64,000 nt of DNA from Escherichia coli (lineage in GTDB: Bacteria > Pseudomonadota > Gammaproteobacteria > Enterobacterales > Enterobacteriaceae). The stretch is taken from NCBI RefSeq assembly GCF_003018115.1, contig NZ_CP027457.1; one strand, given 5' to 3'. The notes beneath the pieces were generated by a model. The model was given only the letters and a program-made list of their open reading frames with translations, was not told where the DNA came from and ran no database searches. Position numbers and translations under genes: made by a program. Shown here piece by piece: positions 24,203 through 47,429 of the stretch. Each line of letters begins with the position of its first letter. Position 1 is the first letter of the stretch.

Positions 24203-24431
24203 GCAAAAAAGCTCCCGAAGGAGCCTTCATTTTCACTTTTTTAAATCCAACGACAGACGGCTGGCATTTAAGTATTGTGAAATATTATCAAATGTAATCA
24301 TCATTGATTTACAAAAGATACATTTTGCCCCGAAAGGATTCATGTCAGAAACATCAAAAGATGATGTTCTATACTGGGAACCATGACAACACGGGCATCT
24401 AAAGTGAATATGGTTTGTAATATTGTCTACC

Positions 24432-24644
24432 TCAAAGCGCCACTACATGAACAGCGGCAGGACCTTTAGGTCCGTTCTCAATACCAAATTCAACTTCCTG
24501 ATTCTCAGTTAATGTTTTGAAATCGTTGCTCTGAATTGCTGAGAAATGGACAAACACATCTTTGCTGCCATCTTTCGGCGTGATGAAACCAAAACCTTTT
24601 TCAGGGTTAAACCATTTCACTAAACCAGTCATTTTGTTAGACAT
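24432..24644 (-). CDS. cspI: Cold shock protein CspI
   Basis: 70 aa CspA-family sequence [23 protein letters not shown]. Confidence 0.9.
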
Positions 24645-25006
24645 AATTATTACCTTTTGAAGAAATTAGCCCTTGGGCAGAATGGTCCGAAAAAAAATAT
24701 CAGAGAGAAAAACCAACAAGGAAATCTCAAGAGGTACAAATAATAAAATTATAACAATGACTGCTTCAGATAAATTTGTAACAAACCAGAACACCATTAA
24801 CGCATGATTAACCACCCATAGCAAGGATTACTTTTGTAAAGAAAAACACAGCAATGAAAGAATAGCTTTATTTATTAATAAAACGTGTCATTCTGATTAA
24901 GACCTTTTATCTTACCCTTAAGATTTCAGGAATTTTGGCTCATGGAAGAGTCCTTTTTATTTAAATTTTACATTCCGCGATGTAAATGTTCCGATTTAAT
25001 ATTACC

Positions 25007-27045: not shown

Positions 27046-27315
27046 GCTTTTTGTGGGAGTCATCCACTTACGCACTTTGTTTTGCCATGCCAGCAGTTAG
27101 CTTCTGCTGTAAAACTATTCATGCAGCAAACCTGCACTTCACCACAATGGTTAGCATACTTTTCCTGATTAAGATTTTGCCAAATATGCTAGCCATTGTT
27201 TCATGTATTGGACCTCCTTACTTTTTATTAAAGAGATCCAATATTCACTACTCTGTCCGTATCTCTACTCAGGCATCAGCCTTCTTCGTTATCGTATACA
27301 GACGAGCGATGAATT

Positions 27316-27531
27316 TTAATCAGTAATGATGACATTTGCTGCTGCAGGACCTTTAGCACCACTCTCTATAGAGAAGGTAACCTTTTGACCTTCAAATAAG
27401 GTTCGATAATTATCATTCTGAATCGCAGAAAAATGCACAAACACATCTTTACTACCATCAACAGGAGAAATAAAGCCGAAACCTTTATCAGCGTTAAACC
27501 ATTTTACTAAACCAGTCATTTTATTTGACAT
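27316..27531 (-). CDS. cspB: Cold shock protein CspB
   Basis: 71 aa CspA-family sequence [23 protein letters not shown]. Confidence 0.9.
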
Positions 27532-27831
27532 TCTACATTCCTTAACTTGAGCCTTTCGGCATAAATGGTTTGCATAACAGAAACGACTTCGTACTTAATT
27601 GGAGAGACTCAAAGAAGGAATAAGTGAATAACACCTGAAATGAGAACTGCTTTAGTAAACTACTTCGTATATCGTCTGTTCTTCAAACCGACGCAATCAT
27701 TAACGCATAGTTGAACATATGAAGCAATGTTTATTTTAGACATCCAGCCATCTTCAACCCCATCAAAAAACTATAGCTTTCTTCAGGAACGTGTGTATAG
27801 TGCGCCAAGTTATCAGTATTAAGGAATTTTT

Positions 27832-32899: not shown

Positions 32900-34600
32900 A
32901 ACTATTTCTGTAGTCACTTTTGTGGGGACAGTCCACAAAACTGCCAACTTCCGCTTCTTGCTCTTAGCGGACATTAGCATAGGCTATTTACCATAACGCC
33001 TCATTACGCGCACCGCCCAGACTGACTCAGCGCGTTTCTGGCATATCCCCGGTAAAACAAGTAACAAACCACCCGAAAATGAACACCAGAAACGCGACTT
33101 AAGAATCTACCCTATGAATGGATATGCACTCAACCGAATCGATCTTGGTTTCAATCTTTTTTATCGGGATCAGGCTTCTTTTTAGGTAACTTCGGGGGCT
33201 TAACTTGCTGATGACTTTGCGTTCGGCGCGTAAGCCAGGGATGGTCAGCTTTAGGTTTAACATAGTATTTTGAGCGTAAATCAATACGGGCATTATCCAC
33301 TCGTTCATGGACACTCTTTTCATCATCCAGTGGTATAGGCTCCGGGCCATCAACATACTTTTCCCAGCCCAGCGCTTTCCCGTCATACAGAACGTTAATT
33401 TCACCGTCAAAGTTCTCGCATACAGTAACAACCGAATGCCTAAGTCGATATCCCCGGCCCTCACTGCGTACCTGAAACGCACTGCTTTTGTACTGGAAAG
33501 TGAGATTTTTAGACAGAACGCGCTTCGCCTGTAGGCTGAAGATATAACCCAGTTCCTCTTCAGAATGGTGCACATCAAGATGAGCATTATCAGTAGTACG
33601 AGGCGACGTAGCGAACCGGTTGTTATAGGCTTCAATAAAGGTCGGCAACCATGCATTTGCTGTTTCAATATCACTGATATTCTGAAGCCGCATTTCTTTG
33701 ACCAGCCTGTCCTGTAGTGTCTGATTGGCGCGCTCTACCCGCCCTTTTGCCTGCGGGCTGTTGGCATGGATTGGCTCGATGCCCAGTGTCTTTATCGCAC
33801 GAGTGAACTGGGTCAGCTCACCTTCCCGCTCTGGGTTATTTACCCTGAATATACTGTGTCTATCAGAGTAGAGAGCGAGCGGTACGCCATGATCATTAAG
33901 GTAACCCCGGAGGGTTTCCATGTAAGCCCGGGTTGTTTCAGCAGGCACAAAACGCAACGCCATCAACGCACTGGTGGCATCATCAATGAAAACGATCAGT
34001 GTACATCTGGGGCCTCGATTTTCAAACCAGTCATGAGGTGAGCCATCAATCTGGATCAGTTCACCGTAAGATGGTCGTCGCATGCGGCGTTGATATATAC
34101 GGGCAATTTTACGACGGCGTTCACGCCATAACCCCTCTTCTATCATCCACTTTCTGAGAGTTTCAACGGATAAAGATAAACCGTGTATCTCGCGCAATTT
34201 TTCGCACGCAAACGTAGGTCCAAAATCAGCGTAACGGCCTTTGAGGAGTGAAATTACTGTTGCTCTGAATTCAGTAGAAAAGGAATTATTAGGACGCTTT
34301 CCACGTCGGTGGGAAACCAGACCAGAAGGCCCTTCATTTCTATACCGTTGCACCAGACGTTTAACCTGCCGAATAGAAATGCCAATGCGTGCCGCAGCTT
34401 GTTCCTGAATAATCTGAAGTCGGTGGAGTTCCTTATGACTCATCGTAACAGTCTCTTTGATCATGAAAAATCCCCCAGAGAATTGTCTGGGGACATTTTA
34501 GAATGGTTCAAAGGGGACATTACAGCTTGGTGTTAACAATAGCCTGCTTCTCCGTGCCTTTCGGCACGTAAGAGGCTAACCTACATGTGTCTAGCATGAA
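32900..34600 (-). mobile_element. Insertion sequence carrying a single DDE transposase (IS481/ISNCY-type); ends not resolved
   Basis: Single 437-aa transposase ORF; terminal inverted repeats could not be assigned by eye. Confidence 0.55.
33151..34464 (-). CDS. DDE transposase with N-terminal HTH and integrase-core (rve) catalytic domain
   Basis: 437 aa; D (IQIDGS), D (YSDRHS), E (GRVERANQ) triad spacing typical of rve. Confidence 0.85.
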   Translation of the reverse strand: MIKETVTMSHKELHRLQIIQEQAAARIGISIRQVKRLVQRYRNEGPSGLVSHRRGKRPNNSFSTEFRATVISLLKGRYADFGPTFACEKLREIHGLSLSVETLRKWMIEEGLWRERRRKIARIYQRRMRRPSYGELIQIDGSPHDWFENRGPRCTLIVFIDDATSALMALRFVPAETTRAYMETLRGYLNDHGVPLALYSDRHSIFRVNNPEREGELTQFTRAIKTLGIEPIHANSPQAKGRVERANQTLQDRLVKEMRLQNISDIETANAWLPTFIEAYNNRFATSPRTTDNAHLDVHHSEEELGYIFSLQAKRVLSKNLTFQYKSSAFQVRSEGRGYRLRHSVVTVCENFDGEINVLYDGKALGWEKYVDGPEPIPLDDEKSVHERVDNARIDLRSKYYVKPKADHPWLTRRTQSHQQVKPPKLPKKKPDPDKKD

Positions 34601-34798
34601 ATTGGCCTCAGATTAATGTTAAGCGTCTTGCAGGACGCGTAATGTTAACTGGGGCTTTTCTCTATCTGCCGTTGGTGTCCATGCCCGAGGCAGATAGCCT
34701 CAAGCACCCGCAGTCATTCTACTTAACTAAGATTTCCCCGCAAACCGTTTTTGTCCAGCACAGTAAATATCCAACTAAACCAATGGAGTTCGCTGTAT

Positions 34799-35741: not shown

Positions 35742-36146
35742 ATGAAATCATTAACCGCAGTGCGTAAAAAAAGCCCTAATTATCCCGTTGAGTTCAAAAT
35801 CAAAATGGTTGAACTCTCGCATCGACCAGAGATCTCCGTAGCGCAACTCGCTCGTGAGCATGGGATCAACGATAATTTGCTGTTCAAGTGGCGCCAGTAC
35901 TGGCGCGAAGGAAAACTACGTCCTCCTTCAACAACAGAAAACAACGTGCCTGAGCTGCTCCCGATAACACTTGATGCCGAAGATGTTGTCCCTACAACCT
36001 CCCCCCGGTCACAACCTGTAGCTGCTGCGACACCTGAATCACTCAATATCAGCTGTGAAGTGACGTTCCGGCACGGATCACTCCGTCTGAATGGTGCCAT
36101 CAGCGAAAATATCCTGAACCTGCTGATACGGGAGCTCAAACGTTGA
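35742..36146 (+). CDS. IS66-family accessory protein TnpA (orf1)
   Basis: 134 aa, HTH-like N-terminus, first ORF of element. Confidence 0.85.
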   Translation: MKSLTAVRKKSPNYPVEFKIKMVELSHRPEISVAQLAREHGINDNLLFKWRQYWREGKLRPPSTTENNVPELLPITLDAEDVVPTTSPRSQPVAAATPESLNISCEVTFRHGSLRLNGAISENILNLLIRELKR

Positions 36147-36490
36147 TCCCATTACCATCAGGGACAAAGATCTGGCTGGTCGCTGGCATCACCGATATGA
36201 GAAACGGCTTCAACGGCCTGGCGGCAAAGGTGCAGACGACGCTGAAAGACGATCCGATGTCAGGTCACGTTTTTATCTTCCGTGGGCGTAATGGCAGTCA
36301 GGTAAAGCTCCTCTGGTCTACCGGCGATGGACTGTGTCTGCTGACCAAACGGCTGGAGCGCGGCCGCTTCGCCTGGCCGTCAGCCCGGGATGGCAAAGTG
36401 TTCCTCACACCGGCACAGCTGGCGATGCTGCTGGAAGGTATCGACTGGCGGCAGCCTAAAAGACTGCTTACGTCCCTGACTATGTTGTAA
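36143..36490 (+). CDS. IS66-family TnpB (orf2)
   Basis: 115 aa, 4-nt overlap with tnpA. Confidence 0.85.
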   Translation: MIPLPSGTKIWLVAGITDMRNGFNGLAAKVQTTLKDDPMSGHVFIFRGRNGSQVKLLWSTGDGLCLLTKRLERGRFAWPSARDGKVFLTPAQLAMLLEGIDWRQPKRLLTSLTML

Positions 36491-36538
36491 GCCTCTTTAT
36501 CCTGGTCGACGCTGAATGAGCCTGGTAATATACCCGGT

Positions 36539-38074
36539 ATGAGCAGCTCACTTCCTGACGATATCAATGCACTGAAACGTCTCCTTGCCGAACAGGAGGC
36601 GCTGAACCGTGCCCTGCAGGAAAAGCTGAACGAGCGTGAACGCGAAATAGACCATCTGCAGGCACAGCTGGATAAGCTGCGCCGGATGAACTTCGGCAGC
36701 CGCTCGGAAAAAGTCTCCCGTCGTATCGCACAGATGGAAGCTGACCTGAAGGCACTTCAGAAAGAAAGTGATACCCTTACCGGTCGGGTTGACGACCCGG
36801 CCGTGCAGCGCCCGCTGCGTCAAACCCGCACCCGCAAACCGTTCCCCGAATCACTCCCCCGCGATGAAAAACGGCTGCTGCCGGCAGCGTCATGCTGCCC
36901 GGAATGTGGAGGCTCGCTGAGCTATCTGGGTGAGGATGCCGCCGAACAGCTGGAGCTGATGCGCAGCGCCTTCCGGGTTATCCGGACTGTACGTGAAAAG
37001 CATGCCTGTACTCAGTGCGATGCCATCGTGCAGGCCCCCGCGCCTTCACGGCCCATCGAGCGGGGTATCGCAGGACCGGGGCTGCTGGCCCGCGTGCTGA
37101 TCTCAAAGTATGCAGAGCACACCCCGCTGTACCGCCAGTCTGAAATGTACGGCCGCCAGGGCGTGGAGCTGAGTCGTTCACTGCTGTCGGGCTGGGTGGA
37201 TGCATGCTGCCGGCTACTGTCACCGCTGGAAGAAGCGCTTCAGGACTATGTGCTGACTGACGGTAAGCTCCATGCTGATGACACGCCTGTCCCGGTGCTG
37301 TTGCCAGGCAATAAGAAAACGAAGACCGGGCGGTTATGGACCTACGTTCGTGACGACCGTAACGCCGGGTCAACGCTGGCGCCGGCGGTGTGGTTCGCTT
37401 ACAGCCCGGACAGAAAAGGCATCCATCCGCAGACCCATCTTGCGGGGTTCAGTGGTGTACTGCAGGCGGATGCATACGCCGGGTTCAACGAGCTGTACCG
37501 GGATGGCCGGATAACGGAAGCCGCCTGTTGGGCTCACGCCCGCCGTAAAATCCACGATGTGCACGTTCGCACCCCGTCAGCCCTGACGGAGGAAGCGCTG
37601 AAACGGATCGGCGAACTGTACGCCATCGAGGCAGAGATAAGGGGAATGACGGCGGAGCAGCGCCTTGCCGAACGTCAGTTGAAAACGAAACCGCTGCTGA
37701 AATCCCTGGAAAGCTGGCTGCGTGAAAAGATGAAAACCCTGTCGCGACACTCAGAACTGGCGAAAGCGTTCGCATACGCCCTGAACCAGTGGCCGGCGCT
37801 GACGTACTATGCAGATGATGGCTGGGCTGAGGCGGACAATAACATCGCTGAAAATGCGTTGCGGATGGTCAGTCTGGGCCGCAAAAACTACCTGTTCTTC
37901 GGTTCGGATCATGGAGGAGAGCGGGGAGCGCTGCTGTACAGCCTGATCGGGACGTGCAAACTGAACGGAGTGGAGCCAGAAAGCTACCTCCGCTATGTCC
38001 TTGACGTCATAGCCGACTGGCCGATAAACCGGGTCGGCGAACTGCTCCCCCTGGCGCGTAGCACTGCCGACTGA
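36539..38074 (+). CDS. IS66-family transposase TnpC (orf3)
   Basis: 511 aa, N-terminal leucine zipper, Cys-x2-C zinc motif, DDE core. Confidence 0.9.
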
Positions 38075-42620: not shown

Positions 42621-42679
42621 ATTTTCTGGTGACGTTTGGCGGTATCAGTTTTACTCCGTGACTGCTCTGCCGCCCTTTT
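42621..42679 (+). ncRNA. dicF: DicF small regulatory RNA (antisense inhibitor of ftsZ translation)
   Basis: Sequence TTTCTGGTGACGTTTGGCGGTATCAGTTTTACTCCGTGACTGCTCTGCCGCCCTTTTT with 3' terminator hairpin, between ydfC and dicB. Confidence 0.75.
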
Positions 42680-42849: not shown

Positions 42850-43038
42850 ATGAAAACGTTATTACCAAACGTTAATACGTCTGAAGGTTGTTTTGAAATT
42901 GGTGTCACTATCAGTAACCCAGTATTTACTGAAGATGCCATTAACAAGAGAAAACAAGAACGGGAGCTATTAAATAAAATATGCATTGTTTCAATGCTGG
43001 CTCGTTTACGTCTGATGCCAAAAGGATGTGCACAATGA
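42850..43038 (+). CDS. dicB: Cell division inhibitor DicB
   Basis: 62 aa MKTLLPNVNTSEGCFEIGVTISNPVFTEDAINKRKQERELLNK. Confidence 0.9.
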   Translation: MKTLLPNVNTSEGCFEIGVTISNPVFTEDAINKRKQERELLNKICIVSMLARLRLMPKGCAQ

Positions 43039-43226
43039 ATTCAGCATTTGTGCTTGTTCTGACAGTTTTTCTTGTTTCCGGAGAGCCAGTTGATATTGCA
43101 GTCAGTGTTCACAGGACAATGCAGGAGTGTATGACTGCAGCAACCGAACAGAAAATTCCCGGTAACTGTTACCCGGTCGATAAAGTTATTCACCAGGATA
43201 ATATCGAAATCCCGGCAGGTCTTTAA
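43035..43226 (+). CDS. ydfD: YdfD (small membrane-anchored lysis-type protein)
   Basis: ORF track 42981-43226 trimmed to MNSAFVLVLTVFLVSG, 63 aa; ATGA overlap with dicB stop. Confidence 0.75.
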   Translation: MNSAFVLVLTVFLVSGEPVDIAVSVHRTMQECMTAATEQKIPGNCYPVDKVIHQDNIEIPAGL

Positions 43227-43318
43227 AACAGTTCCGTAATAAATATCCGGTTTCATTCTTATATGCCAGCAATGGCAGGGATTTGTTCATCCTTAAATCT
43301 GTCATGAGGTTAAAACAA

Positions 43319-45790
43319 ATGAGTAAAGTCTTTATTTGCGCCGCTATTCCTGACGAACTGGCAACAAGGGAAGAAGGCGCTGTGGCTGTAGCCACAGCCA
43401 TTGAAGCTGGCGACGAACGCCGTGCTCGAGCAAAATTTCACTGGCAATTCCTGGAACATTATCCGGCTGCTCAGGACTGCGCTTATAAATTTATTGTCTG
43501 CGAGGATAAACCTGGCATACCCCGCCCTGCCCTCGATTCATGGGATGCTGAATATATGCAGGAAAACCGCTGGGATGAGGAGTCTGCTTCTTTTGTCCCG
43601 GTTGAGACTGAATCCGATCCGATGAACGTCACTTTTGACAAGCTGGCCCCTGAAGTACAGAACGCTGTCATGGTTAAGTTCGACACATGTGAAAACATCA
43701 CCGTTGATATGGTTATTAGCGCACAGGAATTGTTGCAGGAAGACATGGCAACATTCGACGGACATATCGTTGAAGCGTTGATGAAAATGCCAGAAGTTAA
43801 CGCCATGTATCCGGAGCTTAAGTTGCACGCCATTGGGTGGGTTAAGCATAAATGTATTCCTGGTGCTAAATGGCCCGAAATTCAGGCAGAGATGCGCATC
43901 TGGAAAAAACGTCGCGAAGGTGAACGCAAGGAAACCGGAAAATACACGTCTGTTGTTGATCTCGCCCGCGCCAGAGCCAATCAACAGTACACTGAAAATT
44001 CAACAGGAAAAATCAGCCCGGTCATTGCTGCCATTCATCGCGAATACAAGCAGACATGGAAAACACTGGATGACGAACTGGCCTACGCTCTCTGGCCTAG
44101 TGATGTGGATGCCGGAAACATTGACGGCAGCATCCATCGCTGGGCAAAAAAAGAAGTTATCGACAACGACCGCGAAGACTGGAAGCGTATCTCGGCATCA
44201 ATGCGCAAACAGCCTGATGCCCTTCGCTACGACCGCCAAACTATTTTTGGCCTTGTCCGTGAGCGTCCGATCGACATTCACAAAGATCCCGTAGCACTGA
44301 ACAAATATATCTGCGAATACCTGACGACAAAGGGCGTGTTTGAGAATGAAGAAACAGACCTGGGCACTGTTGATGTTCTCCAGTCATCAGAAACACAAAC
44401 TGATGCAGTGGAAACTGAGGTATCTGATATCCCAAAAAATGAAACCGCGCCGGAAGCTGAACCATCTGTAGAGCGTGAGGGGCCGTTCTATTTCCTCTTC
44501 GCAGATAAGGACGGAGAAAAATACGGTCGCGCAAACAAACTCTCTGGTCTGGATAAGGCACTGGCTGCTGGCGCCACTGAAATCACAAAAGAAGAATATT
44601 TTGCCCGAAAAAATGGCACATACACGGGCTTACCGCAAAATGTAGATACCGCTGAAGATTCAGAACAACCAGAGCCGATAAAAGTTACCGCTGACGAAGT
44701 AAACAAAATTATGCAGGCAGCCAATATCAGCCAGCCTGACGCCGATAAGTTGCTTGCTGCATCACGTGGTGAATTTGTTGAAGGGATTAGTGACCCGAAT
44801 GATCCGAAATGGGTTAAGGGGCTCCAGACCCGCGATTCTGTGAACCAGAACCAGCATGAATCGGAACGGAACTACCAAAAAGCGGAACAAAACAGTCCAA
44901 ATGCGTTACAAAACGAGCCAGAAACGAAACAGCCTGAACCAGTAGCGCAACAGGAAGTGGAAAAAGTCTGCACCGCCTGCGGTCAGACCGGCGGCGGCAA
45001 CTGCCCTGATTGTGGCGCGGTGATGGGCGACGCAACATACCAAGAAACATTCGATGAAGAGTATCAGGTTGAAGTTCAGGAAGATGATCCGGAGGAAATG
45101 GAAGGCGCTGAACATCCACACAAGGAGAACACTGGCGGCAATCAGCATCACAATAGCGATAATGAAACTGGCGAGACGGCAGATCACCCAATTAAGGTGA
45201 ACGGTCATCACGAAATCACATCCACCAGCAGGACGTGTGACCATCTAATGATCGACCTTGAAACCATGGGAAAAAATCCTGATGCCCCGATCATCTCAAT
45301 AGGTGCAATATTTTTCGATCCGCAAACCGGAGATATGGGACCGGAATTTAGTAAGACTATCGATCTGGAAACTGCTGGCGGAGTCATTGATCGGGACACC
45401 ATTAAATGGTGGCTTAAGCAATCACGCGAAGCGCAATCTGCCATTATGACCGATGAAATCCCGTTAGATGATGCACTGTTACAATTGCGAGAATTTATCG
45501 ACGAAAACTCCGGTGAATTTTTTGTTCAGGTTTGGGGAAATGGAGCCAACTTCGACAACACGATTTTGCGCCGTTCATACGAACGGCAGGGGATCCCCTG
45601 CCCGTGGCGTTACTACAACGATCGCGATGTACGCACAATCGTTGAGCTGGGGAAAGCCATAGACTTCGATGCCAGAACGGCTATTCCATTCGAAGGTGAG
45701 CGCCATAATGCACTTGATGACGCCCGTTACCAGGCAAAATACGTTTCAGTTATCTGGCAAAAACTGATCCCGAGTCAGGCTGATTCTTAA
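43319..45790 (+). CDS. ydfE: Full-length YdfE-type protein: large N-terminal region, acidic linker, Cys4 zinc ribbon, C-terminal DEDDh 3'-5' exonuclease domain
   Basis: ORF track 43283-45790; start chosen at MSKVFICAAIPDEL after GAGG; Exo I DLE, Exo II GNGANFD, Exo III HNALDDARY motifs in the last ~190 aa. Confidence 0.7.
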   Translation: MSKVFICAAIPDELATREEGAVAVATAIEAGDERRARAKFHWQFLEHYPAAQDCAYKFIVCEDKPGIPRPALDSWDAEYMQENRWDEESASFVPVETESDPMNVTFDKLAPEVQNAVMVKFDTCENITVDMVISAQELLQEDMATFDGHIVEALMKMPEVNAMYPELKLHAIGWVKHKCIPGAKWPEIQAEMRIWKKRREGERKETGKYTSVVDLARARANQQYTENSTGKISPVIAAIHREYKQTWKTLDDELAYALWPSDVDAGNIDGSIHRWAKKEVIDNDREDWKRISASMRKQPDALRYDRQTIFGLVRERPIDIHKDPVALNKYICEYLTTKGVFENEETDLGTVDVLQSSETQTDAVETEVSDIPKNETAPEAEPSVEREGPFYFLFADKDGEKYGRANKLSGLDKALAAGATEITKEEYFARKNGTYTGLPQNVDTAEDSEQPEPIKVTADEVNKIMQAANISQPDADKLLAASRGEFVEGISDPNDPKWVKGLQTRDSVNQNQHESERNYQKAEQNSPNALQNEPETKQPEPVAQQEVEKVCTACGQTGGGNCPDCGAVMGDATYQETFDEEYQVEVQEDDPEEMEGAEHPHKENTGGNQHHNSDNETGETADHPIKVNGHHEITSTSRTCDHLMIDLETMGKNPDAPIISIGAIFFDPQTGDMGPEFSKTIDLETAGGVIDRDTIKWWLKQSREAQSAIMTDEIPLDDALLQLREFIDENSGEFFVQVWGNGANFDNTILRRSYERQGIPCPWRYYNDRDVRTIVELGKAIDFDARTAIPFEGERHNALDDARYQAKYVSVIWQKLIPSQADS

Positions 45791-45862
45791 TGTTCAACTG
45801 TCGCCGGTTGTGACTGGTATTCTGCAACCGGCGCTCGTCTGATGTAAGAGATAAAGAAATCG

Positions 45863-46114
45863 ATGAGCGAAGTAATCATGATTGTCTCTCCCGGCAAATG
45901 GGTATCCGAAGAGCAGTTAATTGCGCTGAAAGGAATAAAAAAAGGTACGTTAAAAAAGGCCCGGGAAAAATCGTTTATGGAAGGAAGGGAATATAAGCAT
46001 GTCGCTCATGACGGTATGCCATGGGATAACAGTCCATGCTTTTACAACCTGGAAGAAATTGATCGCTGGATTGAGCGCCAGGCATCAGCGAGACCAAGAC
46101 GTCATCTTACTTGA
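45863..46114 (+). CDS. Excisionase-like protein
   Basis: 83 aa small basic protein immediately upstream of integrase. Confidence 0.55.
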   Translation: MSEVIMIVSPGKWVSEEQLIALKGIKKGTLKKAREKSFMEGREYKHVAHDGMPWDNSPCFYNLEEIDRWIERQASARPRRHLT

Positions 46115-46148: not shown

Positions 46149-47429
46149 ATGAAATATCCGACAGGCGTGGAAAACCATGGAGGGAAATTACGTATCTGGT
46201 TTGTTTATAAAGACGTAAGAGTCAGGGAAAATCTGGGGGTTCCTGACACAGCAAAAAACAGGCGCGTTGCAGGTGAACTACGCTCCTCTGTTTGTTACGC
46301 AATAAAAACTGGTGTTTTCGACTATGCAAAACAGTTTCCCTCCTCACGCAATCTGGAAAAATTTGGTGAGGCCCGACAAGATTTAACCATAAAAGAACTG
46401 GCTGAAAAATTTCTGGCACTGAAAGAAACTGAAGTCGCCAAAACATCACTCAACACATACCGTGCCGTCATCAAAAATATCCTGAGCATAATCGGTGAAA
46501 AAAATCTTGCCTCATCGATTAATAAAGAAAAATTACTGGAGGTTCGTAAAGAGTTACTGACTGGATACCAGATCCCCAAAAGTAACTATATTGTTACACA
46601 ACCAGGGAGATCGGCTGTAACTGTAAATAATTACATGACAAATCTTAACGCCGTGTTCCAGTTTGGTGTTGATAACGGTTACCTGGCAGATAATCCGTTT
46701 AAGGGGATCTCGCCATTAAAGGAATCAAGAACCATTCCGGATCCTCTTTCGCGGGAAGAATTTATCCGTCTTATCGATGCGTGCAGAAATCAGCAAGCAA
46801 AAAATTTATGGTGTGTTTCTGTTTATACTGGAGTTCGCCCTGGTGAGCTGTGTGCACTTGGATGGGAGGACATAGATCTGAAAAATGGAACAATGATGAT
46901 CAGGAGAAATTTAGCAAAAGACCGTTTCACGGTACCAAAAACACAGGCGGGAACCAATCGGGTCATTCATCTTATTAAGCCAGCAATCGACGCTCTCCGG
47001 AGTCAGATGACATTAACGAGACTGAGCAAAGAGCATATCATTGATGTTCACCTCAGAGAGTATGGCAGAACAGAAAAACAAAAATGCACCTTTGTTTTTC
47101 AACCTGAAGTGTCAGCGAGAGTAAAAAATTATGGTGACCATTTTACCGTTGACTCAATAAGGCAGATGTGGGACGCAGCGATAAAACGTGCCGGACTCCG
47201 CCATCGAAAATCATATCAGTCGAGACATACTTATGCCTGCTGGTCGCTGACAGCTGGTGCTAACCCGGCATTTATAGCAAACCAGATGGGCCATGCAGAT
47301 GCGCAAATGGTATTTCAGGTATACGGAAAATGGATGTCTGAAAACAATAATGCACAGGTAGCTTTGTTAAATACACAGTTAAGCGAGTTTGCCCCAACCA
47401 TGCCCCATAACGAAGCAATGAAAAATTAA
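46149..47429 (+). CDS. intQ: Tyrosine recombinase / phage integrase (full-length)
   Basis: ORF track 46134-47429; C-terminal catalytic region with R...HxxR...Y pattern (ending HTYACW). Confidence 0.85.
   Translation: MKYPTGVENHGGKLRIWFVYKDVRVRENLGVPDTAKNRRVAGELRSSVCYAIKTGVFDYAKQFPSSRNLEKFGEARQDLTIKELAEKFLALKETEVAKTSLNTYRAVIKNILSIIGEKNLASSINKEKLLEVRKELLTGYQIPKSNYIVTQPGRSAVTVNNYMTNLNAVFQFGVDNGYLADNPFKGISPLKESRTIPDPLSREEFIRLIDACRNQQAKNLWCVSVYTGVRPGELCALGWEDIDLKNGTMMIRRNLAKDRFTVPKTQAGTNRVIHLIKPAIDALRSQMTLTRLSKEHIIDVHLREYGRTEKQKCTFVFQPEVSARVKNYGDHFTVDSIRQMWDAAIKRAGLRHRKSYQSRHTYACWSLTAGANPAFIANQMGHADAQMVFQVYGKWMSENNNAQVALLNTQLSEFAPTMPHNEAMKN

Follow-up and report, generated by a model that had tools for sequence, protein, structure and literature searches.

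An intact prophage YdfE-type gene of Escherichia coli predicted to couple a RecE-family scaffold to a DexA-family DEDDh exonuclease domain

RecE (exonuclease VIII) of the Rac prophage is encoded by the last large gene of the early-left region, before xis-int, and in Escherichia coli K-12 recT comes next. Its 5'-3' nuclease domain is of the PD-(D/E)XK type (PF12684; RecE residues 564/606 to 866), and its N-terminal part is given no known function in reviews (PMC11611040). The recombination (Rec) modules of lambdoid phages were surveyed by Zheng, Casjens, Davidson, Amundsen, and Smith (Genome Res 2025, PMC12315714), who counted DnaQ-like 3'-5' nucleases as Rec-module components, mentioned RecE-like proteins without a nuclease domain, called the shuffling of interaction domains beyond the scope of their study, and presented phage Tritos as the prototype of a four-phage class that carries a nuclease without an annealase, a single-stranded DNA-binding protein (SSB), or an anti-RecBCD gene and that has many Chi sites. 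For the nuclease family PF16473, the structure of T4 DexA was solved by Kang et al. (NAR 2025, PMC12153337), who also found that E. coli EcD ("HREX") digests T4 (5-hydroxymethylcytosine [5hmC]) DNA, spares unmodified DNA, and protects E. coli from T4 and that DexA homologues are common in Escherichia and absent from K-12; according to the same paper, DexA takes part in T4 intron homing. Here, we describe an intact gene of the ydfE type (43319 to 45790, + strand; 823 amino acids [aa] plus the stop codon) in a Qin-type lambdoid prophage carried by a 64,000-nucleotide (nt) stretch of E. coli DNA (NCBI RefSeq assembly GCF_003018115.1, contig NZ_CP027457.1), the whole of which is referred to below as the window. 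The predicted protein is a mosaic in which a non-catalytic scaffold of the RecE family and a DEDDh exonuclease domain are joined by disordered linkers. We propose that it may be the nuclease of a reduced, nuclease-only Rec module of the Tritos type and may resect DNA 3' ends, a reading to which we give an even chance of being correct.

The DEDDh 3'-5' exonuclease domain was assigned to residues 641 to 823 (45239 to 45787, +; Pfam Rv2179c-like, T4 DexA family) from Pfam, PDB matches, and residue conservation. PF16473 matched end to end (residues ~641 to 812, model positions 2 to 177 of 177, E = 5.2e-67), and PF00929, the general exonuclease family of Pfam, matched the protein only at an E value of 0.0014. 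The motifs that the original prediction had read in this region were found where it had placed them, as MIDLET (D646, E648), WGNGANFD (D746), and HNALDD (H796, D801), and these five residues, the acidic members of which it had singled out to be checked in homologues, were each conserved at 97 to 100% in an alignment of 89 homologues of <90% identity. They align to D7, E9, D119, H186, and D191 of T4 DexA, which provided the only solved relatives found by sequence (PDB 8KEL and 8KEN). The identity of the domain to DexA is 28%, and that to an EcD-like protein is 37%; DexA and EcD have PF16473 and the five catalytic residues in common with it, and both are standalone proteins. As a sequence-based assignment, the identity of the C-terminal region as a DexA-family DEDDh exonuclease domain with its catalytic residues intact is secure. 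Rv2179c of Mycobacterium tuberculosis, the founder of the Pfam family, shares the DEDDh fold with the YdfE-type protein, which matched the family model over its full length. By description, Rv2179c differs in being a standalone bacterial housekeeping-type exoribonuclease with no phage context.

Upstream of the nuclease, where a single N-terminal domain of ~300 aa had been proposed, BLASTP and an AlphaFold2 (AF2) model instead gave three folded domains, the third of them RecE-like. The model covered residues 1 to 470, was built from a 24-sequence alignment, and had a mean predicted local distance difference test (pLDDT) score of 83.5, with confident folded units at residues 1 to 100, 105 to 225, 247 to 338, and 390 to 431. 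The first unit is a small alpha/beta domain (43319 to 43618, +; Pfam YdfE_N in precomputed Pfam assignments, AF2), and the second is an all-helical domain (43631 to 43993, +; Pfam YdfE_C, PF27432, AF2); these two are specific to the YdfE type. The four scaffold parts that follow are common to RecE. A helical domain at residues 247 to 338 (44057 to 44332, +), corresponding to RecE residues ~278 to 370, was recognised by BLASTP against K-12 RecE, by NCBIfam, and by AF2 with a pLDDT of ~95. It is followed by a mini-domain of a beta-hairpin and a helix at residues 390 to 431 (44486 to 44611, +; GPFYF...RANK motif, AF2 pLDDT >90), which is conserved in the family consensus and has disordered linkers on both sides, and by a conserved segment, DKLLAASRGEFVEGISDPNDPKWVKG, at residues 464 to 505 (44708 to 44833, +), which was identified by comparison with RecE, is near-identical there, and forms the recombination junction between N-terminal types. 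The last is a four-cysteine zinc ribbon, CTACGQTGGGNCPDC, at residues 551 to 565 (44969 to 45013, +), located by a regular-expression scan and spaced C551-x2-C554-x7-C562-x2-C565. Between it and the nuclease lies an acidic low-complexity linker (residues 566 to 640; 45014 to 45238, +), and both ribbon and linker are present as first reported. The ribbon occurs in K-12 RecE and E. coli-clade variants only and is absent from more distant family members; the corresponding position in other clades is occupied by a G-x-F-S-I/V-D/E-x-L motif. In P0121 (527 aa), a naturally occurring variant with an in-frame deletion, residues 1 to 388 are joined straight to the DEDDh domain, so that mini-domain, conserved segment, and ribbon are all missing.

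When compared to K-12 RecE by BLASTP, residues 261 to 626 matched RecE residues 278 to 592 (E = 2e-61) and were nearly identical from residue 464 on, and the NCBIfam RecE model matched residues 245 to 622 at profile positions 271 to 600 of 877 (281.6 bits). The homologous, non-catalytic region includes the conserved segment, the zinc ribbon, and the acidic linker, along which the alignment continues to RecE residue 592, and it ends just short of the crystallised RecE nuclease domain. At this junction the PD-(D/E)XK domain of RecE is swapped for the DEDDh domain, and at the other end the first 255 residues differ in type from those of RecE (hhalign probability of 18% for the two types of N-terminus). 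The RecE nuclease domain had no tblastn match in the window or in 80 related viral loci, and PF12684 had no match in the protein. Together with the natural module combinations described below, these comparisons give sequence backing to the earlier idea of a domain-swapped recombination nuclease. Classification of the protein as a RecE equivalog (NCBIfam NF007259) was rejected, since its score fell below the 1269-bit cut-off and no alignment extended beyond RecE residue 592.

The association with RecE also bears on the kind of nucleic acid that would be degraded. The Pfam family is named after the exoribonuclease Rv2179c, and the name given by the Prokaryotic Genome Annotation Pipeline (PGAP) is "3'-5' exoribonuclease," so the protein might be an RNA 3'-5' exonuclease like Rv2179c or the ISG20-like TONDO proteins, with transcripts of the host or the phage, or else RNA phages, as its targets and the N-terminal region as an "auxiliary domain." A precedent exists in prophage-borne DEDDh exonucleases with auxiliary domains that defend against MS2 and Q-beta (PMC13344964). 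However, the TONDOs came from ISG20-like DEDDh matches of <500 aa (PMC13344964), and the YdfE-type protein has only the poor PF00929 match noted above; the characterised phage and E. coli members of its family, DexA and EcD, act on DNA; and its scaffold belongs to a DNA recombination nuclease. We consider an RNase role very improbable.

A scan for related loci with the single protein yielded only relatives at least 90% identical, and the family was surveyed by a search of 1.84 billion representative proteins followed by module-by-module BLAST. Natural proteins were found for every tested pairing of N-terminus (YdfE or RecE type) and nuclease (DEDDh or RecE type). P0123 carries the N-terminus of Rac RecE (100% identical) and a DEDDh domain (98%) and lies in the order kilR-ydaE-gene-xis-int without RecT; the gene of vB_EcoS-640R1, in a dicB-ydfD context, has a RecE-type N-terminus (72%) and an identical DEDDh domain; and P0133 (chromosome CP123488.1) has a divergent RecE-type N-terminus and a DEDDh domain and ends at xis-int. 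Conversely, P0140 joins a YdfE-type N-terminus to a RecE-type nuclease, and it has an overlapping RecT-like gene (PHROG 561, E = 3.5e-101). In every case examined, the versions with a RecE-type nuclease were paired with a RecT or RecT-like gene, whereas the scaffold-fused DEDDh versions were without an annealase. The DEDDh versions had xis-int directly downstream in four different contexts, and the DEDDh-without-annealase arrangement recurred in other genera with divergent sequences. These chimeras show that the N-terminal two-thirds of RecE is an independent, exchangeable scaffold and that every replacement of the 5'-3' nuclease goes with a loss of RecT, and they offer a handle on the role of the RecE N-terminus and on the support of phage recombination by a 3'-5' nuclease with host RecBCD and Chi. 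New here are the explicit domain map, the recombining of scaffold and nuclease modules in all combinations, and the loss of the annealase that accompanies the DEDDh swap; the published survey contains no analysis of the domain chimera, and its main text is silent on whether the Tritos nuclease was typed as RecE-like or DnaQ-like (PMC12315714).

A broader reading, which we hold to be speculative and doubtful, is that the N-terminal and central region of the RecE and YdfE types is a portable DNA-end tether or host-factor dock coupled to interchangeable effectors, these being a 5'-3' PD-(D/E)XK nuclease with RecT, a 3'-5' DEDDh nuclease without a partner, an unassigned domain with a Gp157-like gene, or no nuclease. 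If this were true, the DEDDh version would act alone as a recombinase of opposite polarity, annealase-free and exposing 5' tails for annealing like XthA in in vivo cloning, and the scaffold rather than the nuclease would be the conserved functional core, which could explain the stimulation of linear-linear recombination by full-length RecE.

Further relatives carried the YdfE-type N-terminus with other C-terminal regions. P0130 (L038, 4001 to 6109) has a 260-aa region without a Pfam match and xis-int downstream. Both it and P0150 consist of the scaffold without a recognisable nuclease and end in the short conserved motif LTxxQxLTIAAxxGLCANP..., and they may be the "RecE-2" proteins, lacking a nuclease domain, that Zheng et al. 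mentioned (PMC12315714). P0137, P0153, and their relatives (PHROG 2489, annotated "exonuclease"; L122, 4001 to 6837; L123 and L124, 4001 to 6927) have an unassigned domain of ~270 aa with the motif KKSLTDALKKALSLLGFSADVW and, downstream, an overlapping gene of the Sipho_Gp157 family. In L122 a weak Gam-like gene lies upstream of the scaffold gene. The unassigned domain matched Pfam Rad52_Rad22 only at an E value of 0.078, and these proteins may be annealase fusions instead of exonucleases.

The ratio of nonsynonymous to synonymous substitution rates (dN/dS) was calculated across 74 distinct alleles and was 0.25 for the intact ydfE gene overall. By region, it was 0.06 to 0.24 in the folded units and the zinc ribbon (0.24 for the all-helical domain, 0.14 for the helical domain common to RecE, 0.06 for the mini-domain, and 0.14 for the conserved segment) and 0.5 to 0.9 in the linkers, with the acidic linker evolving almost neutrally at 0.93. 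Because dN/dS tracks the domain map, with purifying selection on the folded domains and not on the linkers, the gene is under selection and not a chance open reading frame (ORF). The same values bear on whether the gene might be a decaying remnant, that is, a RecE-RecT-type module minus its annealase that gained a DEDDh domain by illegitimate mosaic exchange and hitchhikes without a current role. Disruption is indeed frequent: the K-12 ydfE consists of residues 1 to 255, 100% identical, and is then broken by IS2E, which bears out the statement in the original prediction that the gene is intact in the window and disrupted in K-12; an IS3-family element interrupts it in strain VG888-46E9; and fragments are numerous, besides the in-frame deletion of P0121. 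One-gene Rec modules have moreover been called "somewhat suspect" (PMC12315714). Set against this are the low dN/dS of every folded domain relative to the linkers, the near-complete conservation of the catalytic residues in diverse homologues, the intact gene in the plaque-forming phages Tritos, HannyBb, mEp460_ev081, Evi, and PhiR42_1, and the recurrence of the arrangement in other genera, and we regard a remnant as quite improbable.

The prophage is inserted beside host rspB/rspA, and its genes run in the order dicC (-), dicA (+), ydfA/B/C, DicF RNA, dicB, ydfD, the YdfE-type gene, xis, and int. The YdfE-type gene is the final gene of the dicA-dicF-dicB-ydfD early-left operon, immediately upstream of xis-int, and the position claimed for it between dicB-ydfD and xis-int was confirmed by the ORFs and by identical loci. 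The DicF small RNA is at 42624 to 42675 (+; Rfam, 76.7 bits); dicB (42850 to 43038, +) and ydfD (43035 to 43226, +) are ORFs with Pfam DicB/DUF1482 annotations in identical loci; the excisionase gene xis (45863 to 46114, +), an ORF also seen in identical loci, follows the YdfE-type gene after a gap of 72 nt; and the integrase gene int is an ORF at 46149 to 47429 (+), after which comes host rspB. An uninterrupted ORF was present on the + strand at 43283 to 45790, as had been claimed, and counts 835 aa from a TTG codon in the ORF list of the window. The TTG at 43283 is only a longest-ORF mark, however, and the start taken here is the ATG at 43319, which gives 823 aa and is used in all annotated homologues, including those of phage Tritos, RefSeq genomes, and PHROG 2082 (823 long). 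A ribosome-binding site, GAGG, was read from the sequence at 43306 to 43309 (+), with a 9-nt spacer to the ATG. On the + strand between dicB and the YdfE-type gene, no promoter-like or terminator-like site was found save a weak 5-bp hairpin at 43264 to 43277, and the gene is positioned for cotranscription with dicF, dicB, and ydfD. In the gap before xis, 13 nt past the stop codon, begins a perfect 8-bp inverted repeat, GCCGGTTG ... CAACCGGC, with a 14-nt loop (45803 to 45832). The repeat has no T-run after it, as an intrinsic terminator typically would, and may instead serve in processing or retroregulation.

We investigated by tblastn whether recombination partners are encoded nearby. The queries were RecT of K-12 and another RecT-like protein; Bet, Exo, and Gam of lambda; Erf, SSB, and Abc2 of epsilon34; and the Rad52-like protein of mEpX2. 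None of these had a match in the window or in 80 related viral contigs, which extends the earlier remark that no bet/recT-like gene is adjacent. The 1.7 kb from dicA to the YdfE-type gene holds only the small genes ydfA/B/C, dicB, and ydfD. A two-component recombinase of the Red or RecET type was rejected because the annealase gene is missing from the window and the related loci and xis follows so closely. The prophage has what characterizes a nuclease-only (Tritos-type) Rec module, an early-left nuclease without an annealase, SSB, or anti-RecBCD gene. In Tritos itself, the corresponding gene, TRITO_27, is 99.0% identical at the DNA level and lies in the same order, dicF-dicB-ydfD-gene-xis-int; that phage is likewise without an annealase, SSB, or anti-RecBCD gene and is Chi rich, and nothing material differs between its allele and that of the window prophage. 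Chi (GCTGGTGG) was enriched in the window, with 11 sites versus 2.5 expected. The prophage sites (25609, 29591, 29643, 30176, 30233, 38288, and 45222, one of them inside the exonuclease gene) are mostly by the Q/lysis end, and 5 of the 7 lie on the late-gene strand; the Tritos type has at least 4 on this "top" strand. Chi enrichment without an anti-RecBCD gene agrees with the "no anti-RecBCD, many Chi" class described by Zheng et al. (PMC12315714).

A tblastn search with the nuclease domain in a phage collection returned 696 records. The nearest standalone forms are epsilon34 gp34 and mEpX2_032, which also belong to the PF16473 family and are 56 to 58% identical to residues ~640 to 820. The genes for these ~182-aa proteins are tightly packed between those for SSB and Abc2, with an Erf/Rad52-like annealase gene immediately upstream, in canonical lambdoid early-left Rec modules, whereas the YdfE-type nuclease is fused to the scaffold and all of these partners are missing. 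Another standalone relative, P0169, lies at a prophage edge beside lysis genes.

DicA represses the dic operon in lysogens, and for this reason the YdfE-type protein would be expected to be made upon prophage induction or infection. In the proposed Tritos-type role, the scaffold would deliver the nuclease to its site of action, either a DNA end or a host partner, and presumably serves the RecE nuclease in the same way. The DEDDh domain would degrade DNA from its 3' ends through two-metal catalysis of the usual kind, with D646, E648, D746, and D801 predicted to hold the metals and H796 to act as the general base. Without RecT, the steps after resection would be left to host RecA and RecBCD at the prophage Chi sites or, alternatively, to spontaneous annealing of the 5' tails thus laid bare, for which in vivo cloning dependent on XthA offers a parallel; 3'-5' resection by XthA supports annealase-independent end joining (10.1101/454074). 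We favour a recombination role because the scaffold is shared with RecE, the operon position is fixed, and the nearest standalone relatives are set in Rec modules, and because there are a published Chi-rich class and precedents for 3'-5' nucleases in DexA intron homing and XthA cloning. Several considerations count against it. The activity is predicted from sequence, and the N-terminal domains gave no solved-fold match that would point to binding of DNA ends or a partner. One- and two-gene Rec modules alike were described as of suspect function, and 3'-5' exonucleases usually inhibit recombination (PMC12315714); RecET-mediated assembly is enhanced by the loss of ExoI (xonA), according to PMC13048471; and EcD, the sole bacterial family member tested, is a defence nuclease against T4 (PMC12153337). 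In addition, an RNA substrate is conceivable from the family name, as discussed above, K-12 has lost the DEDDh domain, and no phenotype was found reported in the ydfE literature.

The general antagonism between 3'-5' exonucleases and recombination, as described in the survey and in the assembly study (PMC12315714; PMC13048471), would suit a different function, that of an anti-recombination or anti-defence trimmer of 3' single-stranded tails or of small defence nucleic acids, which would damp RecA loading and SOS and would block competing recombination or disarm a host system. The lack of an annealase partner gene and the host-takeover functions that lambdoid early-left operons bear (kil, dicB, ral/lar) would agree with such a trimmer. 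Yet specific support for an anti-defence factor, which the original prediction had also suggested, was not found, there being no match to an anti-defence family and no consistent neighbouring defence target; a 3' exonuclease would oppose the Chi/RecBCD route that this Chi-rich prophage appears to need, and the RecE-shared scaffold and the Rec-module relatives indicate a pro-recombination context. We rate the trimmer as rather improbable.

The neighbouring gene dicB excludes some phages, and the YdfE-type gene is retained in many defective Qin-like prophages. Both points would be compatible with a nuclease that, like EcD ("HREX"), serves in defence or superinfection exclusion, one that selectively digests incoming phage DNA with modified cytosine (T-even 5hmC) and thereby protects the lysogen or the infected cell. 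The Pfam family common to the YdfE-type protein, EcD, and T4 DexA and the 37% identity to the EcD-like protein point the same way, as do the digestion of T4 but not unmodified DNA by EcD, its protection of E. coli, and the absence of DexA homologues from K-12, which fits the truncated ydfE there (PMC12153337). However, the EcD signature appeared to be missing. The tetramer Asp of DexA (D90), which is Ala78 in EcD and for which a part in the dimer behaviour of EcD-type enzymes was proposed, is kept as Asp718, and DexA W152, proposed to recognise 5hmC, aligns to Tyr766, at a position that is W in 54% and Y in 17% of homologues. DexA D169, also proposed for 5hmC recognition, aligns to Ala780, in a stretch where the alignment is unreliable and where the EcD-like sequence is also without the Asp of the paper. 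Moreover, EcD is a standalone protein of ~190 aa whereas the YdfE-type domain forms one chain with a RecE-type scaffold of 640 aa, the gene lies in a repressor-controlled early-left operon and not in the position of a moron expressed during lysogeny, PADLOC gave only a weak generic DEDDh match, and the nearest standalone relatives are in Rec modules. Taken together, these points make an EcD-like function unlikely. The possibility that EcD of the published work (PMC12153337) is the YdfE-type protein itself was rejected, as the EcD forward primer had no match in the window. In viral contigs, the primer found a standalone 189-aa gene, the Ala78 of which agrees with the published description; its product is the EcD-like protein with 37% identity to the DEDDh domain. 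Upstream of this gene (L018, L019, L022, L025, L032, and L033) there were only 21 open codons, and EcD is therefore a separate small gene and not a fragment of a YdfE- or RecE-type gene.

As an entity, the YdfE-type gene is ordinary. When 5,426 complete E. coli genomes were searched, 4,799 had a match, at up to 10 places per genome, and 3,488 (~64%, or about two-thirds) contained 80% or more of the gene; among plaque-forming phages it is carried by PhiR42_1, HannyBb, Tritos, mEp460_ev081, Evi, and the PPompW group. It is already known from PHROG 2082, Pfam domains, RefSeq, and the 2025 literature. The original description of the intact protein as essentially unstudied holds in that none of the papers listed for ydfE deals with the function of the gene and no paper was found with a test of YdfE itself, but not in other respects: it appears in thousands of genome annotations, in PHROG and Pfam, and in the 2025 Rec-module paper (PMC12315714), and in its family DexA and EcD have been studied biochemically (PMC12153337). 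Annotations include "exonuclease" (RefSeq and PHROGs), the PGAP name given above, and "exodeoxyribonuclease VIII," and GenBank phage records H26, H28, and H43 to H46 (PhiR42_1, Tritos, vB_EcoS-640R1, and others) use "exodeoxyribonuclease VIII" or "ds DNA exonuclease." The label "exodeoxyribonuclease VIII" is wrong as to the catalytic domain and the expected polarity and seems to have been transferred from the common RecE scaffold.

Other features were noted elsewhere in the window. Three consecutive + strand ORFs in the early-right region (35742 to 38074; 134, 115, and 511 aa) resemble the orfA, TnpB, and transposase genes of the IS66 family, and an identical-looking locus, L007, has HTH_Tnp_1 and TnpB_IS66 genes in the corresponding position. 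Another ORF that looks like a transposase gene (437 aa) is located at 33151 to 34464 (-). A sok antitoxin RNA (Rfam) at 34538 to 34709 (-) belongs to a hok/sok module like hokD of Qin. Two cspA-type thermoregulator leaders (Rfam) were found at 24405 to 24790 (-) and 27300 to 27692 (-), implying prophage-borne cold-shock genes like cspB/cspI of Qin.

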